39,191 bases of DNA from Candidatus Pacearchaeota archaeon (GTDB lineage: Archaea; Nanobdellota; Nanobdellia; Pacearchaeales; GW2011-AR1): positions 1 through 39,191 of the forward strand of contig JAGVXB010000029.1 of assembly GCA_018303995.1 (NCBI GenBank), written 5' to 3'. Position 1 is the first letter of the stretch; each line of letters starts with the position of its first letter. The position numbers and the translations under genes were made by a program. Shown here one piece after another: positions 11,285 through 26,459 of this stretch. Below the pieces are notes generated by a model. That model searched no databases, had not been told where the DNA came from, and saw only the letters and a program-made list of their open reading frames with translations.

Positions 11285-11992
11285 TCATTTTTCATCTCCT
11301 TCAGCAACATTTTTCAATGCCTTTTTCTGAACTTCATATATTTTAGCACATGCTTTATCAGCAAGAGCAAGAGCTTGAGGAATTAAATTTGGCTGTATTT
11401 TTCCATCTAATTGTAATAAAGTATATTCATCGGTATTGGCCAATTTTGCAGTTGCAAAGTCAGTTGCTCCCTCCCCCTCTTCAAAATGCTCTTCAGTATC
11501 ATTAACATCAATAACTAAATCCTTATCAAGCTTTCCAACACTAACACCACATACTAAATTTTTCATAGGAATTCCAGCTTGTGCAAGAGCCATAGATGCA
11601 GCATTTATTCCAGCAACGCGTGTGCTAGCATTAGCTTGCAAAATGTAAATCTGTACATCAACAACGGTATTAGGAAATTCTTTTAAATCTAAAGCAGGAG
11701 ACAAAGCCCATTCAGTTACTTTAGATATCTCTTGACTTCTTCTCGAAGGTCCCGGTTTTTTTCTATCTAATACTGAGAAACTAAGCAAATCATAATTCAC
11801 TCGAAGCACTGCACCCTTGGGGTCTTGCATATGTTGCGGGTGTAGCATTCTAGGTCCATAAACAGCAGCAATAGCAACTGTATTTCCAAATGTAAACATA
11901 GCACTTCCATCAGCATTAGGAATAATCCCAACTTTAGCAGTAATAGGGCGCATTTCATCTGCTTTTCTACCGTCTAATCTTTTTACTACCAT
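11285..11992 (-). CDS. rrp41: Exosome complex exonuclease Rrp41
   Basis: RLDGRKADEMRPI, NADGSA, AAVYGPR, PGPSRRSQEIS, AGIPM and LLQLDG. Confidence 0.96.
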   Translation of the reverse strand: MVVKRLDGRKADEMRPITAKVGIIPNADGSAMFTFGNTVAIAAVYGPRMLHPQHMQDPKGAVLRVNYDLLSFSVLDRKKPGPSRRSQEISKVTEWALSPALDLKEFPNTVVDVQIYILQANASTRVAGINAASMALAQAGIPMKNLVCGVSVGKLDKDLVIDVNDTEEHFEEGEGATDFATAKLANTDEYTLLQLDGKIQPNLIPQALALADKACAKIYEVQKKALKNVAEGDEK

Positions 11993-12705
11993 TATTTATT
12001 CTCCCCAAACCATTTTTCAGTTTTTTCAGTTAATCCAGTTACTAAAACTTTGTCTGCAATAAATTCAATAGCCTTCCTAGCTTTTAATTCAGAATCTAAA
12101 CTATTTCCCTTAACCCAAATCCACCCATTCTGACCAATAGTTATATTGCAACCAGTATTTACTTTTATTAAATTAATCATACTTCCCTCGCGACCAATAA
12201 TTCTAGGCACGCGACTCGGGTTTACCCTAAATATAAATCCGCCCTCTAATTTTCCTAAACCCTTTCCTTTCATAGCCAAATCAATTCCCTTAGGGCTTAC
12301 ACTCCAGACCTTAGCAGCAACTACGTCGCCTATGGCCAAGAACTGGTCCATCTCGCCCTTATTAACAAATCTAGGGCTTTCCATTAAAGGTAAAAATCCA
12401 TTCTGAGCATAATCAATATCAACTATCCAACCACTATGAACTATATCAGATACGCGCCCAATGATAACATTATTTCTTCTAGGAATAAATGCTCCAGAAA
12501 AAGGAATTATCTTAATAACTCTACCAACTTTTTCAGCTAATCCATAACGAGAAGCAACAATATCTTTTCCTTCGCGTCTAGCTCCCTCCCCAGGTAAGAA
12601 ATCTTCTTCAGATGAAACAACTTCTCCAGGAACAACAATTACGCGACTCTGAGGTTCAGAACCAAAATCTTCATATTCTCCTTCGTTTTTATCAAATTCT
12701 TTCAT
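11992..12705 (-). CDS. rrp4: Exosome complex RNA-binding protein Rrp4
   Basis: IVVPGE, an S1 domain, KH-like VPRIIGREGSMI and IGQNGWIW. Start set at ATG 12705. Confidence 0.95.
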   Translation of the reverse strand: MKEFDKNEGEYEDFGSEPQSRVIVVPGEVVSSEEDFLPGEGARREGKDIVASRYGLAEKVGRVIKIIPFSGAFIPRRNNVIIGRVSDIVHSGWIVDIDYAQNGFLPLMESPRFVNKGEMDQFLAIGDVVAAKVWSVSPKGIDLAMKGKGLGKLEGGFIFRVNPSRVPRIIGREGSMINLIKVNTGCNITIGQNGWIWVKGNSLDSELKARKAIEFIADKVLVTGLTEKTEKWFGENK

Positions 12706-12846
12706 GTAATGTAACCAAGACAAAGGATAATCGTAATAATTCCTTTGAATCTTTGTATTTTCAATCTTTTATAAAATTCAGGCTTTTTAAAGATTGCGGT
12801 TCAATTTTTTCAAATATTAAAAGAAAAAAGTATGCGAATAGTAAAA

Positions 12847-12875
12847 TATATAAACACCCACACATATGTGTGGGT
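12847..12875 (+). promoter_or_regulatory. vapBC promoter: TATA box plus perfect 20-bp palindromic operator
   Basis: TATATAAA at 12847-12854, then ACCCACACAT|ATGTGTGGGT at 12856-12875, ending at the base before the antitoxin ATG. Confidence 0.85.
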
Positions 12876-13124
12876 ATGGCGACAAAGAACATATCTCTCT
12901 CAGAAGATGCTTATCAAATACTTTCTAGTCTGCGTCAAAGTGAAAAAGAAAGTTTTTCAGAGGTAGTTAGACGAATGAAAAAAAAAGTAAAATTAAGCGA
13001 TTTTCATGGAATTCTATCAAAAGAATCTGCGAACCAACTTGAGGAGAATATGGAGAAAATAAGAGAAATAAATAGAAGACAACATAAAGAAAGAATCAAA
13101 AAATTAAAAGAGATGTTCAAATAA
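12876..13124 (+). CDS. vapB: VapB-family antitoxin (archaeal DUF217 type)
   Basis: MATKNISLSEDAYQILSSLR..ESFSEVVRR..LSDFHGILS. True start is ATG 12876, not 12612; the stop overlaps the vapC ATG. Confidence 0.9.
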   Translation: MATKNISLSEDAYQILSSLRQSEKESFSEVVRRMKKKVKLSDFHGILSKESANQLEENMEKIREINRRQHKERIKKLKEMFK

Positions 13125-13531
13125 TGGTTTGCCTAGATAGTTGTTTTATAATAGATATAATTAAAGGCTTAAAAGAAGCAGTTAAACTCGAGCAGGAGAT
13201 AGATAATTCTAGCGAAGATGTTACAATTACTACACCAGTAATAACTGAAATAATTGTCGGATTACATTTAACTCGGACAAAAAAATATTCTTCACAAGAA
13301 GAAAAAGATAAAGTAATGAATCTAATTAATTCTTTACATGTTCTAGAGTTAGATAAAGAGTCGGCTATTCTTGCAGGAGAGATTCAAGCCGAATTGGAAA
13401 ATAAAGGAGAAATAATAGATATAGAAGATATAATGATTGGAGCAATAGCAAAGCACAACAATGAAACATTAATCACAAGAAATAAAAAACATTTTGAAAA
13501 GATTTCAGGACTTAAAATTCTTAGTTACTAA
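13124..13531 (+). CDS. vapC: VapC PIN-domain toxin
   Basis: CLDSCFIID, ITEI, DIMIGAIA and LITRNKKHFEKISGL. Confidence 0.93.
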   Translation: MVCLDSCFIIDIIKGLKEAVKLEQEIDNSSEDVTITTPVITEIIVGLHLTRTKKYSSQEEKDKVMNLINSLHVLELDKESAILAGEIQAELENKGEIIDIEDIMIGAIAKHNNETLITRNKKHFEKISGLKILSY

Positions 13532-13561
13532 ACAGCAAAAAATAATTTAAATTAAAATTAT

Positions 13562-14467
13562 TCACTGAGGTGCCGATAACATATCGCCTTCTAAACTAAC
13601 CTGGTTGTTATAACTTAGTGTCCATCTTCCAGCACTATAATTTCCTACCCAGAATATTCCAACGTCATCATTTCTATTAGCATCATATAATCTTAATGTT
13701 ATATCTCCACTAGTTGTCGAGTAAGGAACGTAATTTCCTACACCAATATAATGAACTCCAGGAGTGCCTGCCGAATATAAGTCTCCAGCTAATGTATAAT
13801 CTGTGCTGTTATACATTCCCTGTAAAGTTATATCATAACCATCTGTAGCCATCGAGAAGTTTCCATTTCCTTGTATTGATGGATTAACCATTATATTATA
13901 CTCAGCAGACTCAAGAGCTTGAGTATCTACATTAGTTATTAATTTAACTTTATTATTCCCACCAAACCACAAGTATGGATGAGGTGTTTCTATAGTTACA
14001 TTGTAAACTATATGTCCTGGACCATTGCCTTGGTGATATCCATAACCATATCCATATCCTGCATAGCTTCCAGCAGATCCATTAGATTGGAAAGTATTGT
14101 ATCCATAACCATATCCATAAGGGCTTGAATATCCTACGAGAGTCATAGTAACTCCGTTACAAGCAGTTAATTTCCATCCCCACATATCAATTGTACAAAC
14201 AGTCTCACCGTTTACTACAACGCTCACATTTCTTACATTAACAATTTCGTTAGTCTGTATTTCAACATCGCCTAGAAAAGAAATTGTCTCGCCAGCCGTG
14301 TAGGCGTTCGTCTTCAAACCTGATAATGATAATTGAAATGCTTGTACTGGACCAAGGAAAATAAGCAGTCCAATAACAACTGCAGTAAGGGCAATACTAA
14401 AAATCTTATTCGTTTTCCCACTTTTATTATTTTTTATGTTCACAGTATGATTGCTCAATTTTTGCAT
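13562..14467 (-). CDS. Secreted/surface protein with GYGYGY repeats (S-layer-like); paralog of 23045-23746
   Basis: Signal-peptide-like region ending GPVQA, a Cys pair, two GYGYGY tracts and multiple N-x-S/T sequons. Confidence 0.8.
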   Translation of the reverse strand: MQKLSNHTVNIKNNKSGKTNKIFSIALTAVVIGLLIFLGPVQAFQLSLSGLKTNAYTAGETISFLGDVEIQTNEIVNVRNVSVVVNGETVCTIDMWGWKLTACNGVTMTLVGYSSPYGYGYGYNTFQSNGSAGSYAGYGYGYGYHQGNGPGHIVYNVTIETPHPYLWFGGNNKVKLITNVDTQALESAEYNIMVNPSIQGNGNFSMATDGYDITLQGMYNSTDYTLAGDLYSAGTPGVHYIGVGNYVPYSTTSGDITLRLYDANRNDDVGIFWVGNYSAGRWTLSYNNQVSLEGDMLSAPQ

Positions 14468-14597
14468 ATTAATCTCTGTAACTTTCTATATATAAAGATA
14501 TAGGGTAAAAAATGTTATAATTCGGCAGACGTGTTGTCTATTTACGACTTAATCTGCGATAAGTAATGTTTATAATACTGTGTTTTCCAAAACAATA

Positions 14598-15554
14598 ATG
14601 GTAGGCTTAAAATTAATTGTTCAAATTCCTGCTTACAACGAAGAAAAGTCTATAGCAAATGTTATCCGTGAAATCCCTAGAAAAATCAAAGGTATTGACA
14701 AAGTAGAAGTTCTAGTAATTGATGATGGCAGTAAAGACAACACATCAAAAGCGGCAAAAGACGCCGGAGCGGACCATGTTATTAGAAATACAAAGAACCA
14801 TGGCTTAGCATACACTTTTCAAAAAGGATTAAACTTTGCACTTAAGTTAGGAGCAGACATCATAGTTAACACAGATGCGGATTTCCAATATGATCAAAAA
14901 GAAATTCCGCAACTCCTCAAACCAATTCTAGATCAAAAAGCAGATATAGTTTCAGGAAATAGAAAAGTTGAAACTCTAACTCACATGATTGGAGCAAAGA
15001 AGTACGGCAACATCCTAGGAAGTAAAGTAGTCAAAATATCAGCAGGATATGATATAATAGACGCATCTAGCGGTTTCAGAGCATACAGTCGAGAAGCAGC
15101 ATTACAACTATTTGTTATTTCAAAGCACACATACACTCACGAAACTCTTATCCAAGCAGGTCATAAAAATCTCAAAGTCATCGAAGTCCCAGTAACCTTC
15201 AGAAAACGTGAAGGGCATTCAAAACTAATCAAATCAGTAAGCAGCCACATAAAGAAAAGCTTAGCAACAATAGTCAGAAACACATTAATGTATAATTCAT
15301 TAAAGTTCTTCTCCTACACAGGATTTATACTAATCATCTTAGGTCTTATCCCATTTATCAGATGGTTCTACCTTTCATATATAGTATACACCGCAGGAAA
15401 TCATATTCAATCTCTTTTAGTGGGTGTAATGTTAATGGTCTTCGGAGGCATGTCGATCCTTATAGGTCTTATTTCAGATATCTTGGCCATAAATAGAAAA
15501 CATTTAGAGGAAATCCTTTATCACATAAAGAAGTTGGATTTTGAGAAGAGATGA
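14598..15554 (+). CDS. Family 2 glycosyltransferase (DPM1/AglJ-like) with C-terminal TM helices
   Basis: IPAYNEE, VIDDGSKDNT, TDADFQY and DASSGFRAYSR. Start set at ATG 14598. Confidence 0.93.
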   Translation: MVGLKLIVQIPAYNEEKSIANVIREIPRKIKGIDKVEVLVIDDGSKDNTSKAAKDAGADHVIRNTKNHGLAYTFQKGLNFALKLGADIIVNTDADFQYDQKEIPQLLKPILDQKADIVSGNRKVETLTHMIGAKKYGNILGSKVVKISAGYDIIDASSGFRAYSREAALQLFVISKHTYTHETLIQAGHKNLKVIEVPVTFRKREGHSKLIKSVSSHIKKSLATIVRNTLMYNSLKFFSYTGFILIILGLIPFIRWFYLSYIVYTAGNHIQSLLVGVMLMVFGGMSILIGLISDILAINRKHLEEILYHIKKLDFEKR

Positions 15555-16705
15555 AAAGAGTTTTCATAGTAAAAAATGCGCCATTAGGGGAGTCTCAGCC
15601 TCTATCAGTAGATATAACCAGCCTGCTAAAAAATTTTAAGAAAGAAAAAAATATAGAATTAAATCTAATTATCTCTAAATCTCCAAACATTCCTCAAGAA
15701 ATCAGTTCATTATGTAATAAGATCTATCAAATTAAATCGAGCACCTATTCCATTAAAGATAACTTAAAATTTAGTTTCAAAGTATTTAATATATTGCTAA
15801 AAGAGAATAGAATAAAAAGAATTGGCCTTTTGCAAGCTATTTATCCTAACTCCTCATTGTTTGGATGCGTTTTATTTAAGCTTCTTCATCCAAGTATAAA
15901 AATTATCTATGAAGTAAGAAGCCCGTGGATAGATATGTCTGTTTCTCAAGGATATATTTCTGAAAATATGCAGAAATTATATTTACTTATCTTATATAAT
16001 CAAGAAAGAATTCTTTGTGATTTTGTTAATCACTTTATTTTTATTTCTAAAGGGCTAAGAGATTACTATTTTTCTGAATTTGGGATTGGAGATGCATCTT
16101 ACACAATTATTCCATCAGGTGTAGATACGAATCTCTTCAAAAAAGTAGAATCAAATGTCAGGAAGAAATATGGACTAAAAAATTCAGACCTGCTTTTAGG
16201 ATACGTAGGCAGCATTGAAAAAAAACGCCAACTTCAAGATTTTCTAAATTTATTTGCTAACATATCAAAAACAAACAAAAAGATTAAACTTATATTGGTG
16301 GGGGAGGGGAATAGTAAGGAAGACCTAAAAAATATGGTAGAGGCTATGAAAATATCAAATAAAGTTGTTTTTACTGGAAAAGTCTTACATTCAGAAGTTC
16401 CTAAATATATTTCGTCTTTTGATATTGGTGTTTGTCATTTACCAGATATTTTTGTATATCGAAACAGTTTTCCACTAAAAATACTTGAATATCTAGCATG
16501 TGGAGTCCCAGTGATTTCCTCAAATATTAAGGCTCACAAAGATATAGCAAGAGATCTTGATGGAGTTTATATCTACTCAGACAAAGAATCTTTAAAGAAG
16601 ATTCTCAACAAAAAAATGATTAAGATGAGTAAGCAGATTAACAAATATTCGTGGTCAAATTTAGCTAATTTGTACAAGGAGATATACAAAACAAATGAAG
16701 TCTAA
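15551..16705 (+). CDS. Family 4 glycosyltransferase
   Basis: IIPSGVD, GYVGSI, LVGEG, FTGKV and FPLKILEYLACGVPVISS. Confidence 0.92.
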   Translation: MKRVFIVKNAPLGESQPLSVDITSLLKNFKKEKNIELNLIISKSPNIPQEISSLCNKIYQIKSSTYSIKDNLKFSFKVFNILLKENRIKRIGLLQAIYPNSSLFGCVLFKLLHPSIKIIYEVRSPWIDMSVSQGYISENMQKLYLLILYNQERILCDFVNHFIFISKGLRDYYFSEFGIGDASYTIIPSGVDTNLFKKVESNVRKKYGLKNSDLLLGYVGSIEKKRQLQDFLNLFANISKTNKKIKLILVGEGNSKEDLKNMVEAMKISNKVVFTGKVLHSEVPKYISSFDIGVCHLPDIFVYRNSFPLKILEYLACGVPVISSNIKAHKDIARDLDGVYIYSDKESLKKILNKKMIKMSKQINKYSWSNLANLYKEIYKTNEV

Positions 16706-18155
16706 GAAATTAATTTATGCTATCTTAACAATTATAATAATCGTAAGTGCTTCTTTTATGGCCTTGGATCTATTCCAAGTAGAACAGCTATATTCTTATG
16801 ATGCTTATTTTAGTATCGGTTATGCTAATTTATTTTTAGAGACAGGGGAAGTAACAAGTAATATTAATCCTCCATATTCTACAGAATCTATTTTGAACCC
16901 TACTGGTTATTTACAATTTCTTTCTTTGCATCACGCAATCATTAAAGTTATTTTGAGTGTTGATTCTTTTCTAGCTGCAAAAATATTCTTAATCTTTTCT
17001 ATAATCCTACTAAACTTAAGTGTCTATATATTGCTAAACAAATTTTTTAAAAATAATGCAATTATTCTAACAGCTTTAATTTTAATGAATTTTATTCCGA
17101 TAATTAACTATAGATTCTCATTTTTTGTTCAAGAAAATATTTCCCTTCTATTAGTTTTAGCGATATTTTTTGTTTTAATCTTGAAAGAGCAATGGCCAAT
17201 TTTAGTTTTATATCCTACAAGTCTAGCCATGCATCCAAAGCTAACTCTCTTCTTTACGCCTCTGATATTTATATTGTTCATTAGCTCAAAAAAGAGTGAA
17301 CAAGATTGGAAATCTTTAATAAAAATACCGATTCTTACTTTAGTGCTGAGCCTATTCTTTTTATCTCCAGTTTTTACAGTAATTCAAGGCTATATCTCTA
17401 ATTCTGGAGCCACATACCCACTATTTCCGAAAAATCACGTATTATTTGAAGTAAATGCAGAGACTTTGACAAACTTTCTAAATATATCTTATATATTGGC
17501 GTTTACATTTGGAATAATCTATAGTTATAATGTAAACAAAAAATTAAAACCTCTGCTTTTCACTTGGATAATCTTTACCTTAATTCTTTATTTTGTTTTT
17601 AGCTATCTTGATTTTCCGACTAACAGAATAATGTTATATTTAGCAATTTTAATTCCATTTCTTATTTCATCAACTTTTACTGGCTTTAAGAATTCTTTCT
17701 CAAAAAAGATAAATATTCTAATTATGATTATGATAATGATCTTAGGAATAGTATCTTTCTCAAACTCTCCAAACAGAACTCCATTTTTAGGATGGGGGGA
17801 TGAAGAATCCCAAGCTATGAATTATTTATATAAAAACATCCAAGATCAAAATTATTTAATTATTACTCCAGAATACTCTTTGCCATTTGGTTATAATCTG
17901 AGAAATATAGAATTTAATGAATCTAGAATATCTAATCTATTTAATCAATCTTTTGAAGACTTTACGAATTCATTAAATACTGAATATCCAGAATACCGCG
18001 AAATTTACATAATTTTAGGTAGATATAGTTGTTCTACACTTAATGCTTTATCCTCTATAAGTTATATGTGCCAAAATGAAGAAAAAATATTCTATTCAAA
18101 TAATAGGATTAGAGTTTTATATATTCAAAATGAAAATAGCTCTGTTAGGGATTAA
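16695..18155 (+). CDS. Polytopic membrane protein, probable GT-C-fold glycosyltransferase
   Basis: About 11-12 TM helices, first-loop SYDAYF acidic motif, a late R.MLY motif and a C-terminal soluble domain; lies in the GT operon. Confidence 0.65.
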   Translation: MKSKKLIYAILTIIIIVSASFMALDLFQVEQLYSYDAYFSIGYANLFLETGEVTSNINPPYSTESILNPTGYLQFLSLHHAIIKVILSVDSFLAAKIFLIFSIILLNLSVYILLNKFFKNNAIILTALILMNFIPIINYRFSFFVQENISLLLVLAIFFVLILKEQWPILVLYPTSLAMHPKLTLFFTPLIFILFISSKKSEQDWKSLIKIPILTLVLSLFFLSPVFTVIQGYISNSGATYPLFPKNHVLFEVNAETLTNFLNISYILAFTFGIIYSYNVNKKLKPLLFTWIIFTLILYFVFSYLDFPTNRIMLYLAILIPFLISSTFTGFKNSFSKKINILIMIMIMILGIVSFSNSPNRTPFLGWGDEESQAMNYLYKNIQDQNYLIITPEYSLPFGYNLRNIEFNESRISNLFNQSFEDFTNSLNTEYPEYREIYIILGRYSCSTLNALSSISYMCQNEEKIFYSNNRIRVLYIQNENSSVRD

Positions 18156-19116
18156 TAAAACAAGAAAGACAGGTTTAGAGACTTGGAAAGATAATTTGAT
18201 TAGATTTCTCTCTAAAAAAAATAAAATTAGAGAGGTCTATACTTCTAATATTATAAGCATATTAGCAGATATCCATTTTATCTTATCAGCAGATATAACT
18301 CATTCTTATAGTCAAACACCTGGCACAATCTTAATAATTTTATTGAGAAAAATTTTGGGAAAGAAACACATCCATACAGTTCACGGTAATTATTATTATG
18401 AAAATAAAGATAAGCTTGGATTGAAAAGGGTATTTTGGATCCCATTTAACAGATTATGTGTTCACTCCGCAAATCAAGTTACATTTCCTTCAAATCATTT
18501 ATTGCAAGAAATTATCTCCAAAGAAAAAGAGGTTAACCTGAAATATAAAGTCATACCAAATGGCATAGACTTGACTAATATTGCCTTAGTAAAAAGATAC
18601 TCTAAATCTCAGCTTAAAATACCAGAAGATTATAGGTTCATTTTAGAAGTAACAGGTTTTAATTTGCAAGAAAAAGCCCAAGGAATAGACCTTTTAATAA
18701 AAGAATTTAATGAATTAACTGCCATTAACAAGAAAAATATTCTATATATCCTGGGAAGTGGAAAGTTGCTTCAAGGATATAAAAATAAATATCAATCTAA
18801 AAATGTTAAATTTCTTGGATTTAGAGATGACGCCTTAGCTTTAATTAAATCCTGTGATCTTTTAGTGCATTATAGTAATCTTGACTCTTTTGGATATGTA
18901 ATTTTAGAAGGGCTGAGTTTTAATAAACCCGTTATTGCCCATGGATCTAGAGCATTTAACGAAATTTTAGGAAATGGACAAATTTCGTTAAGAGATATAA
19001 ATCAAAGTAATCTGGCAATTTTAGCTAAGAGGAGTAAAAAACTGATTAAAAAATATTCTCACTTGACTATGGGGGAATCTTTTTTGAAGCTATATAAAAA
19101 TGAAACATCTACATAA
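18130..19116 (+). CDS. Family 4 glycosyltransferase
   Basis: HIHTVHG, VIPNGID, YILGSG, FLGFRDD and DSFGYVILEGL..KPVI. Start set at ATG 18130. Confidence 0.9.
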   Translation: MKIALLGINKTRKTGLETWKDNLIRFLSKKNKIREVYTSNIISILADIHFILSADITHSYSQTPGTILIILLRKILGKKHIHTVHGNYYYENKDKLGLKRVFWIPFNRLCVHSANQVTFPSNHLLQEIISKEKEVNLKYKVIPNGIDLTNIALVKRYSKSQLKIPEDYRFILEVTGFNLQEKAQGIDLLIKEFNELTAINKKNILYILGSGKLLQGYKNKYQSKNVKFLGFRDDALALIKSCDLLVHYSNLDSFGYVILEGLSFNKPVIAHGSRAFNEILGNGQISLRDINQSNLAILAKRSKKLIKKYSHLTMGESFLKLYKNETST

Positions 19117-20050
19117 AAAGATTCTTGGTATAATTGTACTACTAGTACTTATAGCCTGGCTCATACACTACGGCCTATCAAACTACTCATCATTCAAGGA
19201 AGTATCTTTCGAAAACCCATGGTTGCTAATAATTATCGGAATAATCTTTCTTTTAGGATACATTCCCGTGTCTGTAATTACATATTACTTACTTGCTCCA
19301 TTCAATGTGAAACTAGGCAAGAAAGAAAGCTTCGGCTTATCAATTGTAACTGGATTCTATAATTTAATCATGCCATTCCGCGGAGGAATGGCTGTGCGCG
19401 GAATATACTTAAAGAAAAAATACGGCTTTTCTTATACTAACTTCCTTGCAACTTTAGCAGCGTCTTACATATTAACATTCTTTATTGCTTCAATACTCGG
19501 TTTGTTCAGTGTTCTGAATATTTACTTAACAAAGAACATAATTAGTTGGCCAATATTTACAATATTTTCAGGAATGTTCTTAATTTTCTTGATAGTAATT
19601 GTATTGTCTCCAAAAATACCTGAAACAAAATATAAGTTTGTAAATCATTTCATTAGTACTCTAAATGGATGGCACTTAATTAAAAATAAAAGAAATATCC
19701 TCTTAGCGGTAATTATTATGTCTGTAGTTCAATTACTTCTATCTGCATTAAATCTATTATTACAATTTAAAGTATTTGGAATTGATATAACTCTCGGCTC
19801 TGCAATATTCTTATCTGCAATGGGTGCTCTTTCGATGATTGTTGGAATAACTCCGGCAGGTCTAGGGATAAATGAGGCGATAATAGTATTTTCAGCTTCT
19901 ACGCTAGGAATCACTCCAATTCAAAGTTTATCGGCTACATTAGCCGGAAGATTTGTAGGATTCATTGTGCTTTTCATTCTAGGCCCAATATTCAGTTATC
20001 TCTTAATCAAGAAAGGAGGCTCTAATGATAAAGAAAATTCTCACAAATAG
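19100..20050 (+). CDS. UPF0104/lysylphosphatidylglycerol-synthase-TM (AglD2-like putative flippase) protein
   Basis: About 8 TM helices; FYNLIMPFRGG..R and ITPAGLGINE. Confidence 0.85.
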   Translation: MKHLHKKILGIIVLLVLIAWLIHYGLSNYSSFKEVSFENPWLLIIIGIIFLLGYIPVSVITYYLLAPFNVKLGKKESFGLSIVTGFYNLIMPFRGGMAVRGIYLKKKYGFSYTNFLATLAASYILTFFIASILGLFSVLNIYLTKNIISWPIFTIFSGMFLIFLIVIVLSPKIPETKYKFVNHFISTLNGWHLIKNKRNILLAVIIMSVVQLLLSALNLLLQFKVFGIDITLGSAIFLSAMGALSMIVGITPAGLGINEAIIVFSASTLGITPIQSLSATLAGRFVGFIVLFILGPIFSYLLIKKGGSNDKENSHK

Positions 20051-21605
20051 TTTCTTACAACTTTGCGTAATTTATTCGGTGTTGATTGCTGTGATGTATT
20101 TTGGAGTCATCTCACGTTATGCCTTGCATTTTCAAATATTTGCTTTAATCATTGCACTTCTGGGAATTTTTGCAATCTCAGAGTACAAAGAAAAAGAAAT
20201 TTCAAAGAAAGTACATTACATTTTATTTGTTTTAGCAATTCTAATTATTATTATATTAAGAGTAATTCCTTACTTGAATAGCAATATTCCTCTTGGATAT
20301 GATGCCGGGATATACAAGTATGCATTAGAATACGGTCTAGAAAGAAATGACTCATGGATCGTAACTGGCCCAACAATGGAACCAGCTTTCCTCTACTTAA
20401 TGGAACCATTAAAGCTATTTTTCAATGCCGATTTCATAATCAAATGGATATTCATTCTCTCAATTGTTGTTCTTGGTCTAGCTTTATACTGGTGCACTAA
20501 ACTATACCTTGGAAAGACACCCGCATTAATTTCTCTTTTATTTTATTCTGTTTCTGTAACTCAATTTCTAACGTTTACTTTCATGTATTTTAGAAATGTT
20601 CTTGGTCTAGCTTTAATGCTTTTTAGCATAGGTTTTCTAAAAAGATATCAAACTACTAATAAACGAAAACATCTCTATTTGTTTATTATCTTTGGTGGGA
20701 TATTGGGAGCAGTACACAGACCAACATTTTATCTTTTTGGTCTTTCTTACTTTTTCTACACTTTTGGTCCAGGCTGGAGAAAAAGATATGACTTCAAGAA
20801 ATATTTCGCTTATGTATTATATGGAATAATCATTCTTCTAATTGCAGTTTCTTTTTACATAGGAAGGTTTTGGCCTGCAATTACTACAATAATTGAACCT
20901 GTTGCATCTAGTTTTGTAGATGCTGGAGAAAGCCCAGGCACATTCATTTCATTTAAACAATATCAATTTCTAACTTTAGCATACTTTACTTTTGCATTAA
21001 TTGGGATATTTTCACTCTTAAAAAAAAGGAAATTTGACTTCCTAGTTATTTGGGCACTAATTAACGCTTCAATTGTATATTTCCAGTTATTCTTCTTTAA
21101 CAGATTTATCATTCACTTAGACATTATCTTGCTTATGTTTGTAGGTCTAGGTTTTAGTTTAGTAATCCAAGAAAAAAAGTGGGTAGGTGTAGGAATACTT
21201 TCGCTTCTATTCATTTCAAGCAGCTACATTATAACAAAAGAGTCTATTGGGGCAAAAAACCAGATTATTACAGAAGATGACTTATATTTGATAAGAGAAT
21301 TATCTGCCCTTACAGAACATAATTCAATGATTATGTCTTTTTCAAAAGAATATTCTCCGTGGATTTTAGCATACTCAAACAGAACAATTATTGCACCAGG
21401 ATTATTTGACGAAAATAAATGGAATGAAGCAGAGTGGAATATATTCTGGCGTGGTGCAGACAGTGAAAAGACTATAGAGTTGATGTCTAGATACGACACA
21501 AATAGACCCATCTACCTATATACAGGAACCAAAAGTTTTAACAACACCTGCTTCAATCAGTTTTTAGAAGAAAATGGGAGAAATGTCTATGAATATAATT
21601 GTTAA
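20025..21605 (+). CDS. Polytopic membrane protein, probable GT-C-fold glycosyltransferase
   Basis: About 13 TM helices, IPLGYDAGIY loop motif, H in GAVHRPT, FNRF motif and a C-terminal extracellular domain. Confidence 0.7.
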   Translation: MIKKILTNSFLQLCVIYSVLIAVMYFGVISRYALHFQIFALIIALLGIFAISEYKEKEISKKVHYILFVLAILIIIILRVIPYLNSNIPLGYDAGIYKYALEYGLERNDSWIVTGPTMEPAFLYLMEPLKLFFNADFIIKWIFILSIVVLGLALYWCTKLYLGKTPALISLLFYSVSVTQFLTFTFMYFRNVLGLALMLFSIGFLKRYQTTNKRKHLYLFIIFGGILGAVHRPTFYLFGLSYFFYTFGPGWRKRYDFKKYFAYVLYGIIILLIAVSFYIGRFWPAITTIIEPVASSFVDAGESPGTFISFKQYQFLTLAYFTFALIGIFSLLKKRKFDFLVIWALINASIVYFQLFFFNRFIIHLDIILLMFVGLGFSLVIQEKKWVGVGILSLLFISSSYIITKESIGAKNQIITEDDLYLIRELSALTEHNSMIMSFSKEYSPWILAYSNRTIIAPGLFDENKWNEAEWNIFWRGADSEKTIELMSRYDTNRPIYLYTGTKSFNNTCFNQFLEENGRNVYEYNC

Positions 21606-22155
21606 AAAACCAAGAGTTCCTTTACTGATTAAGTTAATTATAATTGCAATTCCACTGTTTATTTTTGGATATCTAATAACTGTAAATTTCATAATTGATC
21701 AAGAATTCAATTACTTCTATGATATTGGGGGAGAAGAAGATACAGCTAAGCCATATCTAACTCCTGTTGAAAGAATGTCTGAAATTTATAATAACTCCTC
21801 TGAAAATTATCGGAATGTTAATTATGATTTAGTTTATGTTAATCCTCCTATTCAAAAAGGATCAGAATATGCAGATATTCAGATGAGGGTTATTCCTCCA
21901 ATTAACCTTTCATTTTTATTAGGTGCAAGAATAAGTCAAGAGTGGAATTATACTTGGAATGAATTAAATTTAAGTCACGCACCATCTGGCCAGTGGGTAG
22001 TGGTAGGAAAGAAAATACAGCTATATGAAACTTACTCCATTAATGATAAATTAAGTATGGCTATTCATATTCCTAAATTCTCAAGTGCAAATGGAGATAA
22101 ATTTTCAATAGACTGGATAAATATAACTGTCTACAAACCAGGAGTATTTTCATGA
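21574..22155 (+). CDS. Membrane-anchored extracellular hypothetical protein
   Basis: One N-terminal TM helix and several sequons. Start may be 21583 or 21589. Confidence 0.75.
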   Translation: MGEMSMNIIVKKPRVPLLIKLIIIAIPLFIFGYLITVNFIIDQEFNYFYDIGGEEDTAKPYLTPVERMSEIYNNSSENYRNVNYDLVYVNPPIQKGSEYADIQMRVIPPINLSFLLGARISQEWNYTWNELNLSHAPSGQWVVVGKKIQLYETYSINDKLSMAIHIPKFSSANGDKFSIDWINITVYKPGVFS

Positions 22156-22538
22156 AAAATATATTTAAAGGAAACATTGCATTAACAGTTAATCATTTAT
22201 TTCAGGTCCTACTTGTAACTTATCTAGTGTTGCTTCTTGCCGAAGAATTATGGGCGGGCGTTGTATCCAATTATCTCAACTTAAATTATATGCTTGCTTT
22301 AGTAATCATACTTGGAATATTAGACGTATTCTCAGAGCCACAAATTAAAAAACAAAAAAAGGCTACAAAGAAAGACTATCTTTTCATAATTATATTAGCA
22401 ATTGCCGGCTTTTTGATAATAAAATTAAAAACATCTAGTTTAGGTTGGTTAAGCTGGGCAATTTCAATTATAGCAGGAGTTTTAATAGCACTTTTATCAA
22501 TATTAGTTCTGGAGGACAACGACAATGAAGTGGAATAA
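22152..22538 (+). CDS. 4-TM membrane protein
   Basis: Four hydrophobic segments; ATGA overlap with the upstream gene. Confidence 0.8.
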   Translation: MKNIFKGNIALTVNHLFQVLLVTYLVLLLAEELWAGVVSNYLNLNYMLALVIILGILDVFSEPQIKKQKKATKKDYLFIIILAIAGFLIIKLKTSSLGWLSWAISIIAGVLIALLSILVLEDNDNEVE

Positions 22539-22938
22539 TTTTAACACAAAAGGAAAAGTAGCTATAGTTCTAGGAATTATCTTAGCCGTAGCAGTTATAA
22601 CTTATATCATAGGATTAATCACTGGTTTAGGTATAACTCCATTAAGAATAATATTCGGATTAATCTACGTCTTATTCTTACCAGGATTTATCTTAACTTT
22701 CATCTTCTTTCCTAAGGGTAAAGAAGGAATAGATCAAATAGAAAGAATAGCTTTGTCCTTTGCATTAAGTATTGCCGTAGTTCCTTTAGTTATTTTTTAC
22801 CTCAATCTTATTGGTTTAAGAATAAGCGCTCTAAACACTTTCTTCTCAATTCTAGGGATAATAGTTATAGAATTAATTATAATTTTATTTCAACAAAGAT
22901 ATAGAACAAAATCCAACATTAAGAATATATTCTTGTAA
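22525..22938 (+). CDS. DUF1616-like membrane protein
   Basis: LRIIFGL..VLFLPGF..FFP..ID.IERIALSFALSIA pattern. Confidence 0.8.
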   Translation: MKWNNFNTKGKVAIVLGIILAVAVITYIIGLITGLGITPLRIIFGLIYVLFLPGFILTFIFFPKGKEGIDQIERIALSFALSIAVVPLVIFYLNLIGLRISALNTFFSILGIIVIELIIILFQQRYRTKSNIKNIFL

Positions 22939-22984
22939 TTAGTCTTTTGATCCCTTCGCCAACAATCGCCCCGAGTAACTAAAT

Positions 22985-23040
22985 TCAATCAGTCATAGAA
23001 GTCAATCCGCAATTGTCACAAGAAATAAAAAACTTTGACA
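22985..23040 (+). pseudogene. Probable remnant of a vapC 3' end
   Basis: TCACAAGAAATAAAAAAC (23016-23033) is identical to vapC 13473-13490 and is followed by TTTGA after a 2-nt gap. It reads SAIVTRNKK. Confidence 0.45.
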
Positions 23041-23044
23041 TAAC

Positions 23045-23746
23045 TTACTCAACTAAAAGGAGTAAACACTCCTGAGGGTTTATAAAATGAACAAACAAAG
23101 ATCCAGAGGTTGAACTAGTAGGCAAATAATTTCCTGCGCCAACACGAATCATATTTGGATCGCCTAACCATCGAACCTCTCCAATAAATGTAAGTGTAGA
23201 GTTATCAAATATTCCAGAGAAAATTGCCTCTCCATCATAAGTTCCCATTGAGAAATTAAGGCTGGCAGAATCCCCAATTAATATTGGATAAAAACTTGAA
23301 TTAAGCGTCTGAGTTAATGTTTGTGTAATAAGCCTAAAATTATTATGTGATGGAGCATTAACATAAGGTTGAAGAGTGTCTATGCTTATATTATAAACAA
23401 GATGCCCACTAACCTCATTTCCATAAATAAAGTTAGCAGAATTTGGAACAACAGAAATCTCTATTCCATCACAACCCTTTAACTCCTCTCCAGACACCGC
23501 GAACACACAAACAATTTCTTGATTAACCTCAAGGGATATTTCTTGAATTGAAACTCCCTCATTAGAGGTTATATTAATGCCTGCAAGAAAATCAATCGTC
23601 TCTCCAACAGTATAAGATGTAGTCTTAAATTCATACAATCCTAAATTTAATGCACCCGCCATTCCTATGAAAACGAGCAACACAACAACAAATGCAATAA
23701 CTCCAAGACCTAGAGCCCCATTTAACTTTCCATATCTGCTCTTCAT
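23045..23746 (-). CDS. Secreted/surface protein, paralog of 13562-14467, possibly C-terminally truncated
   Basis: YTVGETIDFL / YTAGETISFL, a conserved Cys pair, GHLVYNISIDT / GHIVYNVTIET, NFSM.T and G.GNY.P.S.TSG. Confidence 0.8.
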   Translation of the reverse strand: MKSRYGKLNGALGLGVIAFVVVLLVFIGMAGALNLGLYEFKTTSYTVGETIDFLAGINITSNEGVSIQEISLEVNQEIVCVFAVSGEELKGCDGIEISVVPNSANFIYGNEVSGHLVYNISIDTLQPYVNAPSHNNFRLITQTLTQTLNSSFYPILIGDSASLNFSMGTYDGEAIFSGIFDNSTLTFIGEVRWLGDPNMIRVGAGNYLPTSSTSGSLFVHFINPQECLLLLVE

Positions 23747-23855
23747 ATTAACAAAACTATAATTTAATTTATAAATATATGTGGTTAAAATGATATATAT
23801 AATTTCCTAGATTATAAAAATAAAAGATTTATAAATTCCCTATTCGCATGTCGAT

Positions 23856-24518
23856 GTGAAAAAACAAACAAGATCTATTCTTGCTCGAATAGTTCCAGAA
23901 AACGATGGAATGTATGGCGTTTTTCGTCTTTCGGCGTCAGCACCACGCGCTAACCTAAGCAGTATTTGTGGAGAATTTAGAACAGACTCAACTTTCAAAG
24001 TATTGCAATTCCCATCAGCAGACAAATTGTTTTTTTACGGTCTTGAAAAAGACTTCAAACCAAATTTTAGAACTCGCTCAGAAGCAGATGCGGCTACAAA
24101 AGTATTATTTCCAACCCACTTAGAGGCACATTATAGTAAAAGAACTCCTCTTGAAGAAAGAAATGGAATCGGTTATGCAAAAATCTCTATTGAAGAAATG
24201 ACATTCGACGAAGATTGGCATAGTTTGGTCAGAAGCGTCTTAAATCATTATCAAAACACCATGGATGAAATTTTAAAAAAAAGAGAAATAGTTAGAGTGC
24301 CTGAAAAAGACACAATAGCCTACAAATCTATGCTCGGCCAATTTAAGAAATATCCCTCTTCATTAATTGATTTAGTATTAAAAAGCGGATTTTATTATTG
24401 GGCAAGAAGAGATGACACTCTCAACCTATGCATGGAACTTCAACCCTTACAAGGGGCAGTCTCACAAATTCCAGTAGGAAAACTTCCTTTGAATCCTAAA
24501 GCACTAAAAAGATCTTAG
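23856..24518 (+). CDS. Hypothetical protein
   Basis: 220-aa ORF with a GTG start and TTTATAAA upstream; no motif recognised. Confidence 0.7.
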   Translation: MKKQTRSILARIVPENDGMYGVFRLSASAPRANLSSICGEFRTDSTFKVLQFPSADKLFFYGLEKDFKPNFRTRSEADAATKVLFPTHLEAHYSKRTPLEERNGIGYAKISIEEMTFDEDWHSLVRSVLNHYQNTMDEILKKREIVRVPEKDTIAYKSMLGQFKKYPSSLIDLVLKSGFYYWARRDDTLNLCMELQPLQGAVSQIPVGKLPLNPKALKRS

Positions 24519-24529
24519 TTTATGTAAAA

Positions 24530-25198
24530 CTACTTCATCTCTTGGCTAACAATTGCACCGTGAGTAACTGAATTCAACTTGTCATAAAAATCAATCTGTA
24601 ACCCAGAAGGAATATTCATGATAACTTGCAAATCTCCATTTGAAAGCCATTCTTCACTTTCCTTATAATCTTTTAACATTCCATAAACTTGAGCACTAAA
24701 TCTGGCAGGAATGGTAATCTTTATTTTCTTAGTTTCAACCTTAATTGGAATAACTGTCGCCAATTTGATAATTAAATCATTCATCTGCGCTTCAGCAGGC
24801 CTATTATCAAAACTAAAATGTACTTCATTTATTGCCTTTCTTATCCTATCGTCAGTATAAGGCCTACCGTGCTGATCAACTGCATTTCTAATAATTAAGT
24901 CGACTACTTGTTTAATGCGTTTCTCTCGCTCAGCATCTCTGAAATCTTGATCTTTTTGTATCTCACCTTTTTTCATAATTCTATCAGCTATTACATAAAT
25001 ATCAGATGTATCAAAAGCAGCCTCAAGCTCTGCCTTAGAACAAGTCATCCCTTTTCTAACGTCAGTATAAATTGCAGGAGAATTCAAAGCAGCAGAAACA
25101 TTTCCCTTTCCAGCACGCACTTTAAGAGCTTCATCCAAATCTACAGAAATCTCAAATTGCTTTCCCTTTACCTTAATGCGTGCTTCAACTTTTGCCAT
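24530..25198 (-). CDS. sdo1: Ribosome maturation protein SDO1/SBDS
   Basis: ARIKVKGKQFEISVD, AAFDTSD, GEIQ, IPIK and EEWLSNGDL..IPSGLQ..LNSVTHG. Confidence 0.94.
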   Translation of the reverse strand: MAKVEARIKVKGKQFEISVDLDEALKVRAGKGNVSAALNSPAIYTDVRKGMTCSKAELEAAFDTSDIYVIADRIMKKGEIQKDQDFRDAEREKRIKQVVDLIIRNAVDQHGRPYTDDRIRKAINEVHFSFDNRPAEAQMNDLIIKLATVIPIKVETKKIKITIPARFSAQVYGMLKDYKESEEWLSNGDLQVIMNIPSGLQIDFYDKLNSVTHGAIVSQEMK

Positions 25199-25247
25199 GT
25201 AATGATTTGATATATAGATTATTTAAAGATTTAGTTCTCATATCTAT

Positions 25248-25487
25248 CTAATTTTCTTGATGAATGTCTCTGCATACCATTGTTAAATCTTCAGCAGTAG
25301 TAAAAACCCCCAAATATCTAATTAATTCAGGTAATCTGCTCGTACGGATAAATCTTTTACGTCTCTCTGAAACATACAAGCCTTTTTCTCTAGCACCAGT
25401 TTCAATTGATTTATAACTTCTAGGATTTCCAATTACTTGAAGCCCTGCCCGAATATCATCTATTGTAAGCATATCCATTTTATCCAT
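25248..25487 (-). CDS. Hypothetical protein, possible winged-HTH; paralog of 941-1264
   Basis: Collinear motif match to the 941-1264 product. Start set at ATG 25487, with CTTAAAAA upstream. Confidence 0.7.
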   Translation of the reverse strand: MDKMDMLTIDDIRAGLQVIGNPRSYKSIETGAREKGLYVSERRKRFIRTSRLPELIRYLGVFTTAEDLTMVCRDIHQEN

Positions 25488-25541
25488 AAAATTCAAAAAT
25501 TATATGGCTTTTTAAGGGTTGCTGAGTACTAAGATATTTTT

Positions 25542-25667
25542 CTAAGCGTGCAATTCAATGTGCTTTATTTCTTCCTCAATTGATACCATAGCTTTACGAA
25601 TTCTTGCTATATGTTCTTTATTGCTGTCTTCATGGGATTCATTCTGTTGTTCATTTATTTTATTCAT
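25542..25667 (-). CDS. Small putative coiled-coil peptide (41 aa), absent from the ORF track
   Basis: Own translation: MNKINEQQNESHEDSNKEHIARIRKAMVSIEEEIKHIELHA*. It fills the gap on the same strand as its neighbours. Confidence 0.5.
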   Translation of the reverse strand: MNKINEQQNESHEDSNKEHIARIRKAMVSIEEEIKHIELHA

Positions 25668-25733
25668 AACTAAACTAGAGCATAATACTATAATAATGTA
25701 TGCTGTATATTATTATACTACACTTTCTAAGAA

Positions 25734-26459
25734 TTATTTGGCATACTTCTTCAAATCTTCACCATGAACTCTAACTAACTTACCTTCTTTAAGTGAAATC
25801 ATTCCAACATCGAATCTAGAGACTTCAAAATTCTTTCCAAGAATTTCCTTAAATATTTTAATTACAAACTTAACTCCCTCATCCATAGTCATATCATCTT
25901 TGAATCCCTTTCGTAACTCTTCCTTAATTTGTTCATCATTCTCTCCAATAGAATTAGCCCTATATGCAAAAAAGTTTCCAGTAATATCTGACGTATATAG
26001 GTGAGGTCTATTTTTTGAAACTCCAGCAATCATTATTGAAACTCCATACGGACGTGAGCCTCCATATTGTGTGTATGCTTGCTTATTATCTGCAATCATC
26101 TGTATAACACTTATAGGATCTACAGGCGTTCCGTATGAGACTTTATGTTGCTGAGCAAGCAAACGAGCACGGTCAATCAAAACGCGGGCGTCAGAAGCAA
26201 TTCCGGCAGCAGTAGCCATAACATGATCATCAACTTCAAAAACTTTAACAGCAGATTCAGGAGCAATTAAGTTGTCACGAATACGCTTGTCTGCAACAAA
26301 TATAACGCCGTCCTTGCAAACCAATCCGACACTATTACTTCCAAGCTTTACAGTCTTCTCTGCGTACTCGACCTGAAGCAAATGTCCCTCAGGAGAAAAC
26401 ATAGTCGCAGCTCGGTCATATCCCATAGCTTGATGTTGCATTTCTGTTGGCATATCCAT
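25734..26459 (-). CDS. psmA: Proteasome subunit alpha
   Basis: GYDRAATMFSPEGHLLQVEYA and YTQYGGSRPYGVS. Confidence 0.97.
   Translation of the reverse strand: MDMPTEMQHQAMGYDRAATMFSPEGHLLQVEYAEKTVKLGSNSVGLVCKDGVIFVADKRIRDNLIAPESAVKVFEVDDHVMATAAGIASDARVLIDRARLLAQQHKVSYGTPVDPISVIQMIADNKQAYTQYGGSRPYGVSIMIAGVSKNRPHLYTSDITGNFFAYRANSIGENDEQIKEELRKGFKDDMTMDEGVKFVIKIFKEILGKNFEVSRFDVGMISLKEGKLVRVHGEDLKKYAK

Follow-up and report, generated by a model that had tools for sequence, protein, structure and literature searches.

Why a set of genes for surface proteins and glycosyltransferases lies within the exosome-proteasome gene array of an archaeon is the question raised by the locus between rrp4 and sdo1 in a Candidatus Pacearchaeota genome (contig JAGVXB010000029.1 of GenBank assembly GCA_018303995.1). 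The 39,191 bp analysed here, hereafter the window, correspond to contig C32 of a 38-contig assembly of 0.89 Mb with an estimated completeness of 83% (genome G000). According to Pfam, the minus-strand genes rpoK, rrp42, rrp41 and rrp4 flank the locus on one side and sdo1 and psmA on the other, i.e. rrp4, rrp41 and rrp42 are contiguous, and sdo1 and psmA lie upstream of them, as in the archaeal exosome gene array, and the order rrp4-rrp41-rrp42 is recorded in the available part of PMC2806925. Between the Pfam-placed sdo1 and rrp4 lie 11,806 bp (12724-24529) with the gene content that an earlier reading made from the sequence alone (the sequence-only reading) had listed: a vapBC toxin-antitoxin (TA) pair, a surface protein gene on the minus strand (protein A), nine plus-strand open reading frames (ORFs) that abut or overlap, from a glycosyltransferase family 2 (GT2) gene through sm3, a second minus-strand surface protein gene (protein B) and one 'orphan' gene (Table 1). 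Our data suggest that this region is probably a flexible surface-glycosylation island of the replacement type, which occupies a genus-specific hotspot between sdo1 and rrp4 and, in this small-genome DPANN-like archaeon, carries a cassette shared across phyla.

Both sdo1 and rrp4 were searched in 40 relatives. Outside the genus, 22 genomes contained both genes, in 21 of them on one contig, and the gap between them measured 13-626 bp in 19 of these 21 genomes and 1.46 and 2.65 kb in the remaining two. Within the genus, 16 genomes, G000 included, contained both genes, and one further congener matched neither. Where a single contig spans the site, the gap is either short, i.e. 0.17, 0.6 and 0.86 kb (G012, G007 and G016, the spacer of the last holding vapBC alone), or long, i.e. 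11.8, 13.1, 15.3, 16.5 and 22.9 kb (G000, G014, G001, G013 and G002, respectively); in the other half of the congeneric genomes (8/16), sdo1 and rrp4 are found on separate contigs, each broken off a few kb or less from the site. Evidence of a glycosylation cluster at the site was obtained for nine of the 16 genomes, of which G004, G010, G011 and G015 supplied it through partial contigs, while four have none (G003, G007, G012 and G016) and no call was made for three (G005, G006 and G009). Because sdo1 and rrp4 are adjacent in the outgroup and separated by a variable gap within the genus, the island interrupts an ancestrally adjacent pair, and the hotspot appears from these comparisons to be genus-specific. 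The split of a linked junction that the sequence-only reading had assumed is thereby borne out (adjacency in 19 of 21 outgroup genomes, 0.17-22.9 kb within the genus). Of the conserved superoperon that it had invoked, the close linkage of sdo1 and rrp4 (<0.7 kb in 19/21 outgroup genomes) and the contiguity of rrp4, rrp41 and rrp42 stood, whereas Pop5 was not identified in the window, the ORF at 26507-26848 being without a Pfam match.

The four other complete islands (G001, G002, G013 and G014) are all glycosylation clusters of a common plan. At their rrp4 end, the gene of a protein A homologue (39-45% identical) is oriented divergently to that of a GT2 of 309-311 aa; the middle consists of glycosyltransferases of family 4 (GT4), a flippase-slot protein of either the Wzx or the LPG_synthase_TM type, a 383-386-aa protein of no known family and a 645-687-aa membrane protein with weak similarity to PMT_2; and towards sdo1 there follow a PMT_2 protein of 460-463 aa and, in three of the four, a member of the orphan family. 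The divergent pair of protein A and GT2 is present in all seven congeners in which both sides are assembled. Among the four complete-island genomes, the flank genes are 80-87% identical to those of G000, against 25-45% for the shared island families, and nine of the 14 island proteins of G000 have no homologue in these four islands (all-against-all comparison, E<=1e-8, at least half the length), which share a core set of their own, e.g. the 383-aa protein at 60-63% identity. Only G004 shares part of the G000 type, namely PMT2 (87%) and sm1 to sm3 (about 40-70%), followed directly by the orphan without protein B. All five complete islands thus place different genes of the same functional class at the same core-gene site, as in a replacement flexible genomic island, and the gene content points to replacement rather than mere divergence. 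Since the site is empty in some congeners, the island has also been gained or lost, and not only replaced.

The cassette type of G000 has its counterpart in another phylum. Relatives of the 486-aa membrane protein encoded in the operon were scanned in one genome per species with an alignment of the five closest sequences, which yielded one locus only, in Candidatus Methanoperedens nitroreducens Mnv1 (L026, 628-17053). This locus is collinear with the G000 operon and contains three protein-A-like genes on the opposite strand, followed by genes for GT2, GT4, an STT3-like GT-C (a glycosyltransferase of the GT-C fold), GT4, a methyltransferase, Wzx, a PMT2-like protein and an sm1-like protein. Identities to the G000 genes amount to 44-68% for GT2, 40.5% for the first GT4 (to GT4 a), 32% for the STT3-like GT-C, about 25-27% in local matches for the split second GT4, 29% over the full length for the PMT2-like protein and 27% for the sm1-like protein, the last gene, while the methyltransferase has no counterpart in G000 and the Wzx flippase shares its slot with the non-homologous LPG_synthase_TM protein. 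The GT2 and one GT4 of Mnv1 appear split or frameshifted in the assembly. By comparison, the G000 GT2 is only 25-28% identical to those of the congeneric islands, and on the GT2 tree it groups with Methanoperedens (support 95/98), whereas six GT2s from congeneric islands make up a clade of their own (96/100). The best match of protein A in the 3.5-Mb Mnv1 genome is likewise a gene of this locus (324 aa; 38% over residues 20-161), and the Mnv1 protein-A-like proteins carry the same signal motif, Gly-Tyr repeats and two conserved sequon positions. All three Mnv1 genes encode Gly-Tyr-repeat surface proteins, two of them with C-terminal membrane anchors. A search at E<=1e-10 did not find the STT3-like protein in the genomes sampled, 400 further ones from the window's phylum and 200 from the class of Methanoperedens. 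Considering that G000 shares its cassette type with Candidatus Methanoperedens rather than with most congeners, whole cassettes have probably moved between phyla and replaced one another at the site. The sequence comparisons therefore support protein A and the operon as travelling together across lineages, in line with the sequence-only reading, which had suggested that the island may be exchangeable: the cassette type differs among congeners, and a collinear cluster exists in Methanoperedens.

The enzymes of the operon resemble those of lipid-linked glycan pathways. The best NCBIfam matches of the GT2 are AglJ, Dol-P-hexose transferase (Dol-P, dolichyl phosphate), PpgS and ArnC, all of them below the equivalog cut-offs (for AglJ, TIGR04182, 121 bits against a cut-off of 325), and its GT2 domain is followed by two hydrophobic C-terminal segments (250-268 and 280-298), the arrangement of polyprenyl-phosphate GT2s. 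The PMT_2 protein exceeds the Pfam gathering cut-off (Table 1), with 39.7 bits in the genome search, and is predicted from its sequence to be a GT-C glycosyltransferase. The 486-aa protein belongs to a tiny family, i.e. 13 proteins including the query among 1.84 billion representatives in a full HMMER scan, and a word-indexed search returned only the protein itself; in Pfam it matches only EpsG, below threshold. An AlphaFold2 model built with its 12 relatives (pLDDT 85.7, pTM 0.85) was compared with solved GT-C enzymes. Every Foldseek match at E<=1e-3 was a GT-C enzyme, and the top 20 were all STT3, PglB or AglB except ALG12 at rank 12. With VIA-align, yeast STT3 gave Z 27.7 (root mean square deviation 3.7, 450 residues aligned), AglB/PglB Z 23.5-24.4, Pmt4 22.9 and ArnT 20.6. 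Profile comparison by hhalign with the AglB of the same genome (81% probability, E 1.2e-5) paired SYDAY with DLDPF of AglB and V-P-E-N with I-P-E-K-E. Residues D36, R140, E147, H180 and R311 are conserved, and D36 of 'SYDAY', an acidic residue in the first extracytoplasmic loop as in GT-C enzymes, is kept in at least 90% of the 12 homologues. The model thus places the 486-aa protein among GT-C enzymes with an STT3-like fold, so that both large membrane proteins fall into the class that had been proposed for them, one by Pfam and the other by predicted fold.

As candidate substrates, proteins A and B are predicted to be secreted, sequon-rich paralogues with two Ig-like domains. The AlphaFold2 model of protein A (pLDDT 80.8) consists of a helix at the N-terminus, two beta sandwiches of the Ig-like type and a disordered loop of Gly-Tyr repeats, and its best fold matches are generic two-Ig-domain proteins with low TM-scores of 0.3-0.4. 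An invariant G-P-V-x-A follows the hydrophobic helix throughout the family and would correspond to a Sec-type signal-peptidase site rather than to a class III signal. Word-indexed searches yielded 12 close and three distant homologues of protein A and two homologues of protein B. The distant homologues of protein A have the signal, the Gly-Tyr loop and the first domain in common with it and then continue into a PGF-pre-PGF domain, which is a mark of archaeal surface proteins. With eight sequons (2.7 per 100 aa), protein A ranks at the 96th percentile of 883 ORFs, sm1 with six (3.1 per 100 aa) at the 97th and protein B with 2.1 per 100 aa at the 95th. The sequon columns at N80, N156 and N220 of protein A are kept in 14, 16 and 15 of 19 homologues, respectively.

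Taken together, the core of the cassette would be the gene of the secreted two-Ig-domain protein A, divergently paired with the operon. The AglJ/ArnC-like GT2 would charge dolichyl phosphate with a sugar, the two GT4 enzymes would extend the lipid-linked glycan at the cytoplasmic face, and the flippase-like protein would move the lipid-linked sugar outward, a role which gains support from the exchange of a Wzx for an MprF-TM-like protein in a conserved slot. At the outer face, the GT-C pair, i.e. the compact STT3-like enzyme and PMT_2, would transfer sugar from the lipid carrier to the co-encoded, sequon-rich proteins A, B and sm1 or to glycans already present on them. We infer the sugar donors, the acceptors (including the transfer to A and B), the order of the steps and a biological role in virus evasion or host contact. 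The sequence-only reading had outlined much the same pathway, and its idea was largely right in outline and is partly supported: the operon does encode a GT2 resembling polyprenyl-phosphate sugar synthases, as well as GT4s and a flippase-like protein. Its suggestion of a self-contained system does not hold in full, given that there are no sugar-nucleotide genes in the island and that a canonical AglB cluster lies on another contig. This AglB (904 aa; PF02516, 57.5-59.8 bits) is encoded on contig 1 of G000 in a cluster (C1, 30000-49000) with Wzx, four GT2s, a 618-aa PMT_2 protein, a methyltransferase and an epimerase; the 618-aa PMT_2 protein also touches the STT3 profile.

Several observations weigh against the interpretation as an exchangeable island that glycosylates its own surface proteins. 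WWDYG marks the start of the external domain in STT3, AglB and PglB. Neither the 486-aa protein nor any of 11 homologues matches PF02516 (STT3) at E<=0.01, and no WWDYG follows its last helix, where close homologues carry 'PFLGWGDEE' and distant ones unrelated residues; it is therefore filed as a GT-C with an STT3-like fold and not as an oligosaccharyltransferase. The conserved sequons point to N-glycosylation, for which the canonical AglB, on a different contig, is the sole candidate of the WWDYG type, so that the island enzymes may only tailor glycans, or may act on lipids or polymers. Among the island ORFs, Pfam detected neither an initiating phosphoglycosyltransferase nor a sugar-nucleotide gene. 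As regards exchange, the Methanoperedens genes are only 27-68% identical to those of G000 and have a GC content of 41% against 31% for the G000 island; any transfer would be old and could have gone either way. The PMT2 shared with G004 (87% at the amino acid level) has diverged about as much as core genes, so no recent transfer is demonstrated. Finally, the tree of the flanks is based on two genes that may themselves recombine, and its crown is poorly resolved.

The main rival, which we consider unlikely, is that the operon builds a non-protein glycoconjugate, i.e. a lipoglycan, the head group of a glycolipid or a surface polysaccharide, with proteins A, B and sm1 being linked to it genetically and not serving as substrates. 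GT-C enzymes of the PMT_2/ArnT and Emb/Aft types act on lipids and polysaccharides and feature among the fold matches, the EpsG match of the 486-aa protein, although below threshold, and its STT3-like fold without WWDYG point the same way, and the complete off-island AglB cluster could account for the sequons. On the other hand, the pairing of protein A with GT2 is kept in all seven assembled congeners and in Methanoperedens, i.e. across phyla and with non-orthologous GT2s, two sequon positions recur in the Methanoperedens proteins, and the 486-aa fold is nearest to the protein-modifying STT3, followed by PMT.

Going beyond the replacement island, it is tempting to speculate on a reading that we regard as somewhat more doubtful still, i.e. 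that the Ig-domain Gly-Tyr-loop protein, the glycan genes and a dedicated compact STT3-like transferase of a new, WWDYG-less oligosaccharyltransferase-like class form a portable module of 'surface identity' that moved between Methanoperedens and a DPANN archaeon of the same anoxic groundwater or soil habitats. If so, the module may serve the symbiont in matching or binding the surface of its host or in changing its virus receptors, and the shared cassette could point to Methanoperedens as the host or the gene donor of this uncultured lineage.

The limits of the cassette are drawn by G003, the sister of G000 on the rrp4+sdo1 tree (support 100/99), in which the order is sdo1, orphan, vapC, vapB, 2.4 kb with a DDE transposase and rrp4, the link to rrp4 resting on an exact contig overlap of 55 bp. 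Inside one contig, the vapC stop of G003 meets the upstream region of the orphan within about 27 bp, equivalent to window position 13531 joined to about 23816, i.e. G003 lacks exactly the segment from protein A through protein B; its vapB is 94% identical. Therefore, these 10.3 kb are a clean presence/absence unit with vapBC and the orphan outside it, and the latter two belong to the hotspot and not to the cassette. The proposed membership of vapBC in the unit is contradicted by its retention in the cassette-less G003 and by its occurrence alone at the site in G016. Since the cluster-less G003 and G007 nest among cluster-bearing genomes on the rrp4+sdo1 tree, either at least two losses or several gains have occurred. 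The 2.4-kb insert of G003 (contig C20, L010, 138-2339) encodes the DDE transposase (408 aa) and a 237-aa ORF between vapB and rrp4, and may be linked to the loss of the cassette.

Proteins A and B are, as the sequence-only reading had noted, collinear paralogues in direct orientation (BLASTP, 32% identity over 244 columns, E 3e-40; same strand), and an in-place duplication whose copies act as direct repeats for excision or exchange of the enclosed cluster would fit this arrangement as well as the absence of the segment from A through B in G003. We consider this very unlikely. A and B, which have no further family member in the 0.89-Mb assembly, stand on opposite sides of the deepest split of the family tree, with B as sister to the single copy of G004 (99/98), and since they belong to different deep allele clades they do not stem from a recent duplication. 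Recombination between repeats would leave one hybrid copy, whereas G003 keeps none; in G004, PMT2, sm1, sm2 and sm3 are followed directly by the orphan, without B; and no long DNA repeat joins the two genes. The bracketing by duplicated surface genes that had been suggested was thus not confirmed, as the two copies come from different clades and the four other complete islands have one copy each, and protein B appears from the tree to be an additional allele that was picked up at the distal end of the cassette. The window contains protein B in shortened form: at 23071/23072, contigs from three public runs (X1-X3) that otherwise match exactly have 97 more bases, after which the shifted frame ends in VFTPFS*, resembling the family C-terminus. 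The assembly probably has a small deletion here or a minority variant.

Hardly more credible, and if anything less so, is the idea of a provirus or integrative mobile element with the sdo1-rrp4 spacer as its target and vapBC addiction as its means of persistence. Every version of the island is rich in TA pairs; in the four other complete islands, MNT/HEPN, HepT, DUF433/DUF5615 and MazE are scattered throughout. The density of TA-like pairs is striking in G001, G002 and G013, with at least five nucleotidyltransferase-type genes in G002. In addition, G003 has a DDE transposase at the site, and a 21-nt direct repeat, identical at 20 of 21 positions, occurs at 13473 and again at 23016. However, Pfam scans of the island ORFs revealed no integrase, recombinase or virus gene, there are no tRNA genes in the window, no direct or inverted repeats occur at the ends of the G003 indel, and vapBC persists where the cassette is absent. 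Thus, neither an integrase or recombinase, nor a tRNA or att target, nor flanking repeats of a site-specific integrative element were found in the Pfam, tRNA and repeat searches. By our estimate, 0.2-1 repeats such as the 21-nt one are expected by chance in 12 kb of AT-rich DNA, and as it does not lie at the indel ends it was judged fortuitous and rejected as a functional element.

Least credible of all is a chimera of the metagenome assembly, since, even though eight congeneric assemblies break at the site and the window lacks 97 bases inside protein B, four other genomes carry an island built on the same plan, flanked by the same two genes and contained in one contig each, and exact contigs of four public groundwater and soil runs span vapC-protein A-GT2 (13470-14728) and protein B-orphan-sdo1 (23757-24659). 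In this comparison, contig-layout joints with sides of 20-39 bases were left out, and depths are contig depths, which are unable to rank regions. Across the island and its flanks, exact contigs from the four runs form a tiling of similar per-contig depth throughout (17-19 in X1 and X2), and the summed contig depth of X1 was 30-58 on rrp42-vapBC and 18-25 inside the island, values that cannot rank these regions. More diverged contigs pile up on the core flanks, which fits an island specific to one genotype but, being contig depths, cannot establish it.

The reading as a replacement island can be set against several known systems. Replacement flexible genomic islands have been described for exposed surface structures (Lopez-Perez et al. 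2014, PMC4033161) and for the cell wall of Haloquadratum walsbyi (Martin-Cuadrado et al. 2015, PMC4535781). According to the accessible text of these papers, the present island is similar in its fixed core-gene site, at which the same function (surface glycoproteins and their glycosylation) is served by different genes, in its mosaicism and traces of mobile elements and perhaps in public contigs of related strains falling on the flanks more than on the island. It differs, as far as that text goes, in its DPANN-like host with a genome of <1 Mb, in its site within the exosome-proteasome gene array and in that one version is closest to a cluster of another phylum. The flanks, which are 66-91% identical at the amino acid level among congeners, are too diverged to reveal the substitution peaks that homologous recombination would leave at the island borders. 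Among Pseudomonas aeruginosa pilin allele cassettes with pilin-specific glycosylation (Harvey et al., bioRxiv 10.1101/150227), the part of the preprint available to us likewise describes a surface protein and its means of glycosylation that co-vary as alleles at one locus, with phage evasion proposed, but there the substrates are type IV pilins in another domain of life, whereas protein A has a 'GPxxA' site that is putatively of the Sec type.

In Haloferax volcanii, AglJ and AglD are Dol-P sugar synthases, AglR has a flippase role, AglS adds Dol-P-mannose to the protein-bound glycan, and agl gene clusters vary between strains, as given in the accessible part of Shalev et al. 2018 (PMC5867893). 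Compared with what is described there, the island would offer similar components, i.e. a GT2 nearest to AglJ/Dol-P-hexose transferase, soluble glycosyltransferases, a flippase slot and an outer-face Dol-P-sugar transferase, whereas it has no AglB, its NCBIfam matches remain below the equivalog cut-offs, its flippase slot is MprF-TM-like and not Wzx-like, and it has an extra STT3-like GT-C. STT3, AglB and PglB are the best structural neighbours of the model of the 486-aa protein over both the membrane and the C-terminal domains (Z 23.5-27.7, 434-462 residues aligned), and the profile similarity to its own AglB spans the first acidic loop motif and the P-E motif, in contrast to which it has about half their size, no Pfam STT3 match and no WWDYG. 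In bacterial three-component systems of periplasmic glycosylation (GtrA/GtrB/GtrC and ArnC/ArnT/ArnE-F), a monosaccharide is loaded onto polyprenyl phosphate by a GT2, crosses the membrane by way of a small membrane protein or flippase and is handed on outside by a GT-C. The island follows the same logic, with ArnC and ArnT among the matches and small four-helix proteins after a GT-C as ArnE/F after ArnT, although archaeal carriers and acceptors differ and sm2 and sm3 have no detectable similarity to GtrA or ArnE/F. Considering that neither sm1 nor sm2 gave anything worth naming in Pfam at E<=10, and that their Atlas matches are unnamed clusters, a role like that of ArnE/F or GtrA is an analogy only.

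Strain-variable islands for surface glycans are thought to govern virus susceptibility and cell-cell recognition, and the DPANN lifestyle depends on attachment to host cells. A full-text search of the literature open outside subscription journals and supplements returned no account of a glycosylation island either at sdo1-rrp4 or in Pacearchaeota, Woesearchaeota or DPANN archaea, and what appears from the sequence comparisons to be new here is the collinearity of the operon with a Candidatus Methanoperedens cluster beside protein-A-like genes. A hotspot that occurs empty, minimal and full within a single genus is useful for population genomics, and with a candidate enzyme-substrate pair that two phyla have in common, the glycosylation of archaeal surface proteins beyond AglB becomes directly testable. 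A very small and rare family of STT3-like GT-C enzymes could also reveal the minimal requirements of the fold, and the Methanoperedens link gives a concrete starting point for tracing gene flow between a methane-oxidising archaeon and a DPANN lineage, which may also be in ecological contact.

Table 1. Features at the rrp4-sdo1 site of the window (positions in the window; aa, amino acids)
Feature	Position	Strand	Evidence and remarks
rrp4, exosome cap subunit	11992..12723	-	Pfam KH_6, ECR1_N, RRP4_S1; 66-91% identical in congeners
vapB antitoxin, 82 aa from ATG at 12876	12876..13124	+	PF02697, E 6.6e-13
vapC, PIN-domain toxin	13124..13531	+	PF01850, E 1.5e-16; NCBIfam VapC models below cut-offs
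Unit absent from sister G003, protein A through protein B, 10.3 kb	13532..23815		
Protein A, predicted secreted/surface protein	13562..14467	-	AlphaFold2 model, signal/anchor helix, two Ig-like domains, Gly-Tyr loop
GT2, polyprenyl-phosphate sugar synthase type	14580..15554	+	PF00535, E 1.5e-23; divergent from protein A
GT4 a	15551..16705	+	PF00534, E 1.7e-24
486-aa compact GT-C, STT3/AglB-like predicted fold	16695..18155	+	AlphaFold2, Foldseek, VIA-align; without WWDYG
GT4 b	18076..19116	+	PF00534, E 6.2e-16, plus PF13439
Flippase-like, MprF transmembrane domain-like (LPG_synthase_TM)	19100..20050	+	PF03706, 102.6 bits (cut-off 33.4); TIGR00374, 43.7 bits (cut-off 43.2)
PMT_2 family GT-C	20025..21605	+	PF13231, 35.9 bits (cut-off 26.1)
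sm1, N-terminal membrane helix and sequon-rich extracytoplasmic domain	21574..22155	+	Hydropathy
sm2, four hydrophobic helices, no family	22152..22538	+	Hydropathy
sm3, four helices	22525..22938	+	PF07760 (DUF1616), E 1e-19, profile positions 1-121 of 307 (N-terminal third)
Protein B, 3' end truncated in assembly	23045..23746	-	BLASTP to protein A
Orphan, cytoplasmic, 220 aa	23856..24518	+	No family match
sdo1 (SBDS)	24530..25198	-	Pfam SBDS_N, SBDS_domain_II, SBDS_C
psmA	25734..26459	-	Pfam

The GC content is 33.1% for the G000 genome, 31.1% for the island and 34-36% for its flanks, a difference that is too small, and expected for membrane proteins, so that it was dropped as evidence of transfer. 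The vapB and vapC genes share base 13124, and with the PF02697 gene directly upstream of a PIN gene they are predicted from sequence to form a type II VapBC pair. The nearest Atlas clusters of sm2 are unnamed small membrane proteins of Nanobdellota and of candidate phyla radiation (CPR) bacteria (Uhriibacteriota and Moraniibacteriota), and sm2 may therefore belong to a membrane protein family shared by small cells. In the contigs of four runs, the start of sdo1 is joined directly to psmA (window 25198-25748) at a weak joint with sides of 39-68 bases, with 549 bp skipped or replaced that hold an 82-aa ORF (25248-25496). The orphan has no Pfam, NCBIfam, Atlas or PDB-sequence match, its best PDB hit (E 0.031, a coiled-coil protein) having been disregarded as unrelated. 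Its homologues, 23-53% identical, lie next to sdo1 in G001, G002, G003, G004 and G013, twice in the last of these, i.e. the family, which has an invariant LFFYG motif, is seen only at the sdo1 edge of the hotspot and is kept in the cassette-less G003.

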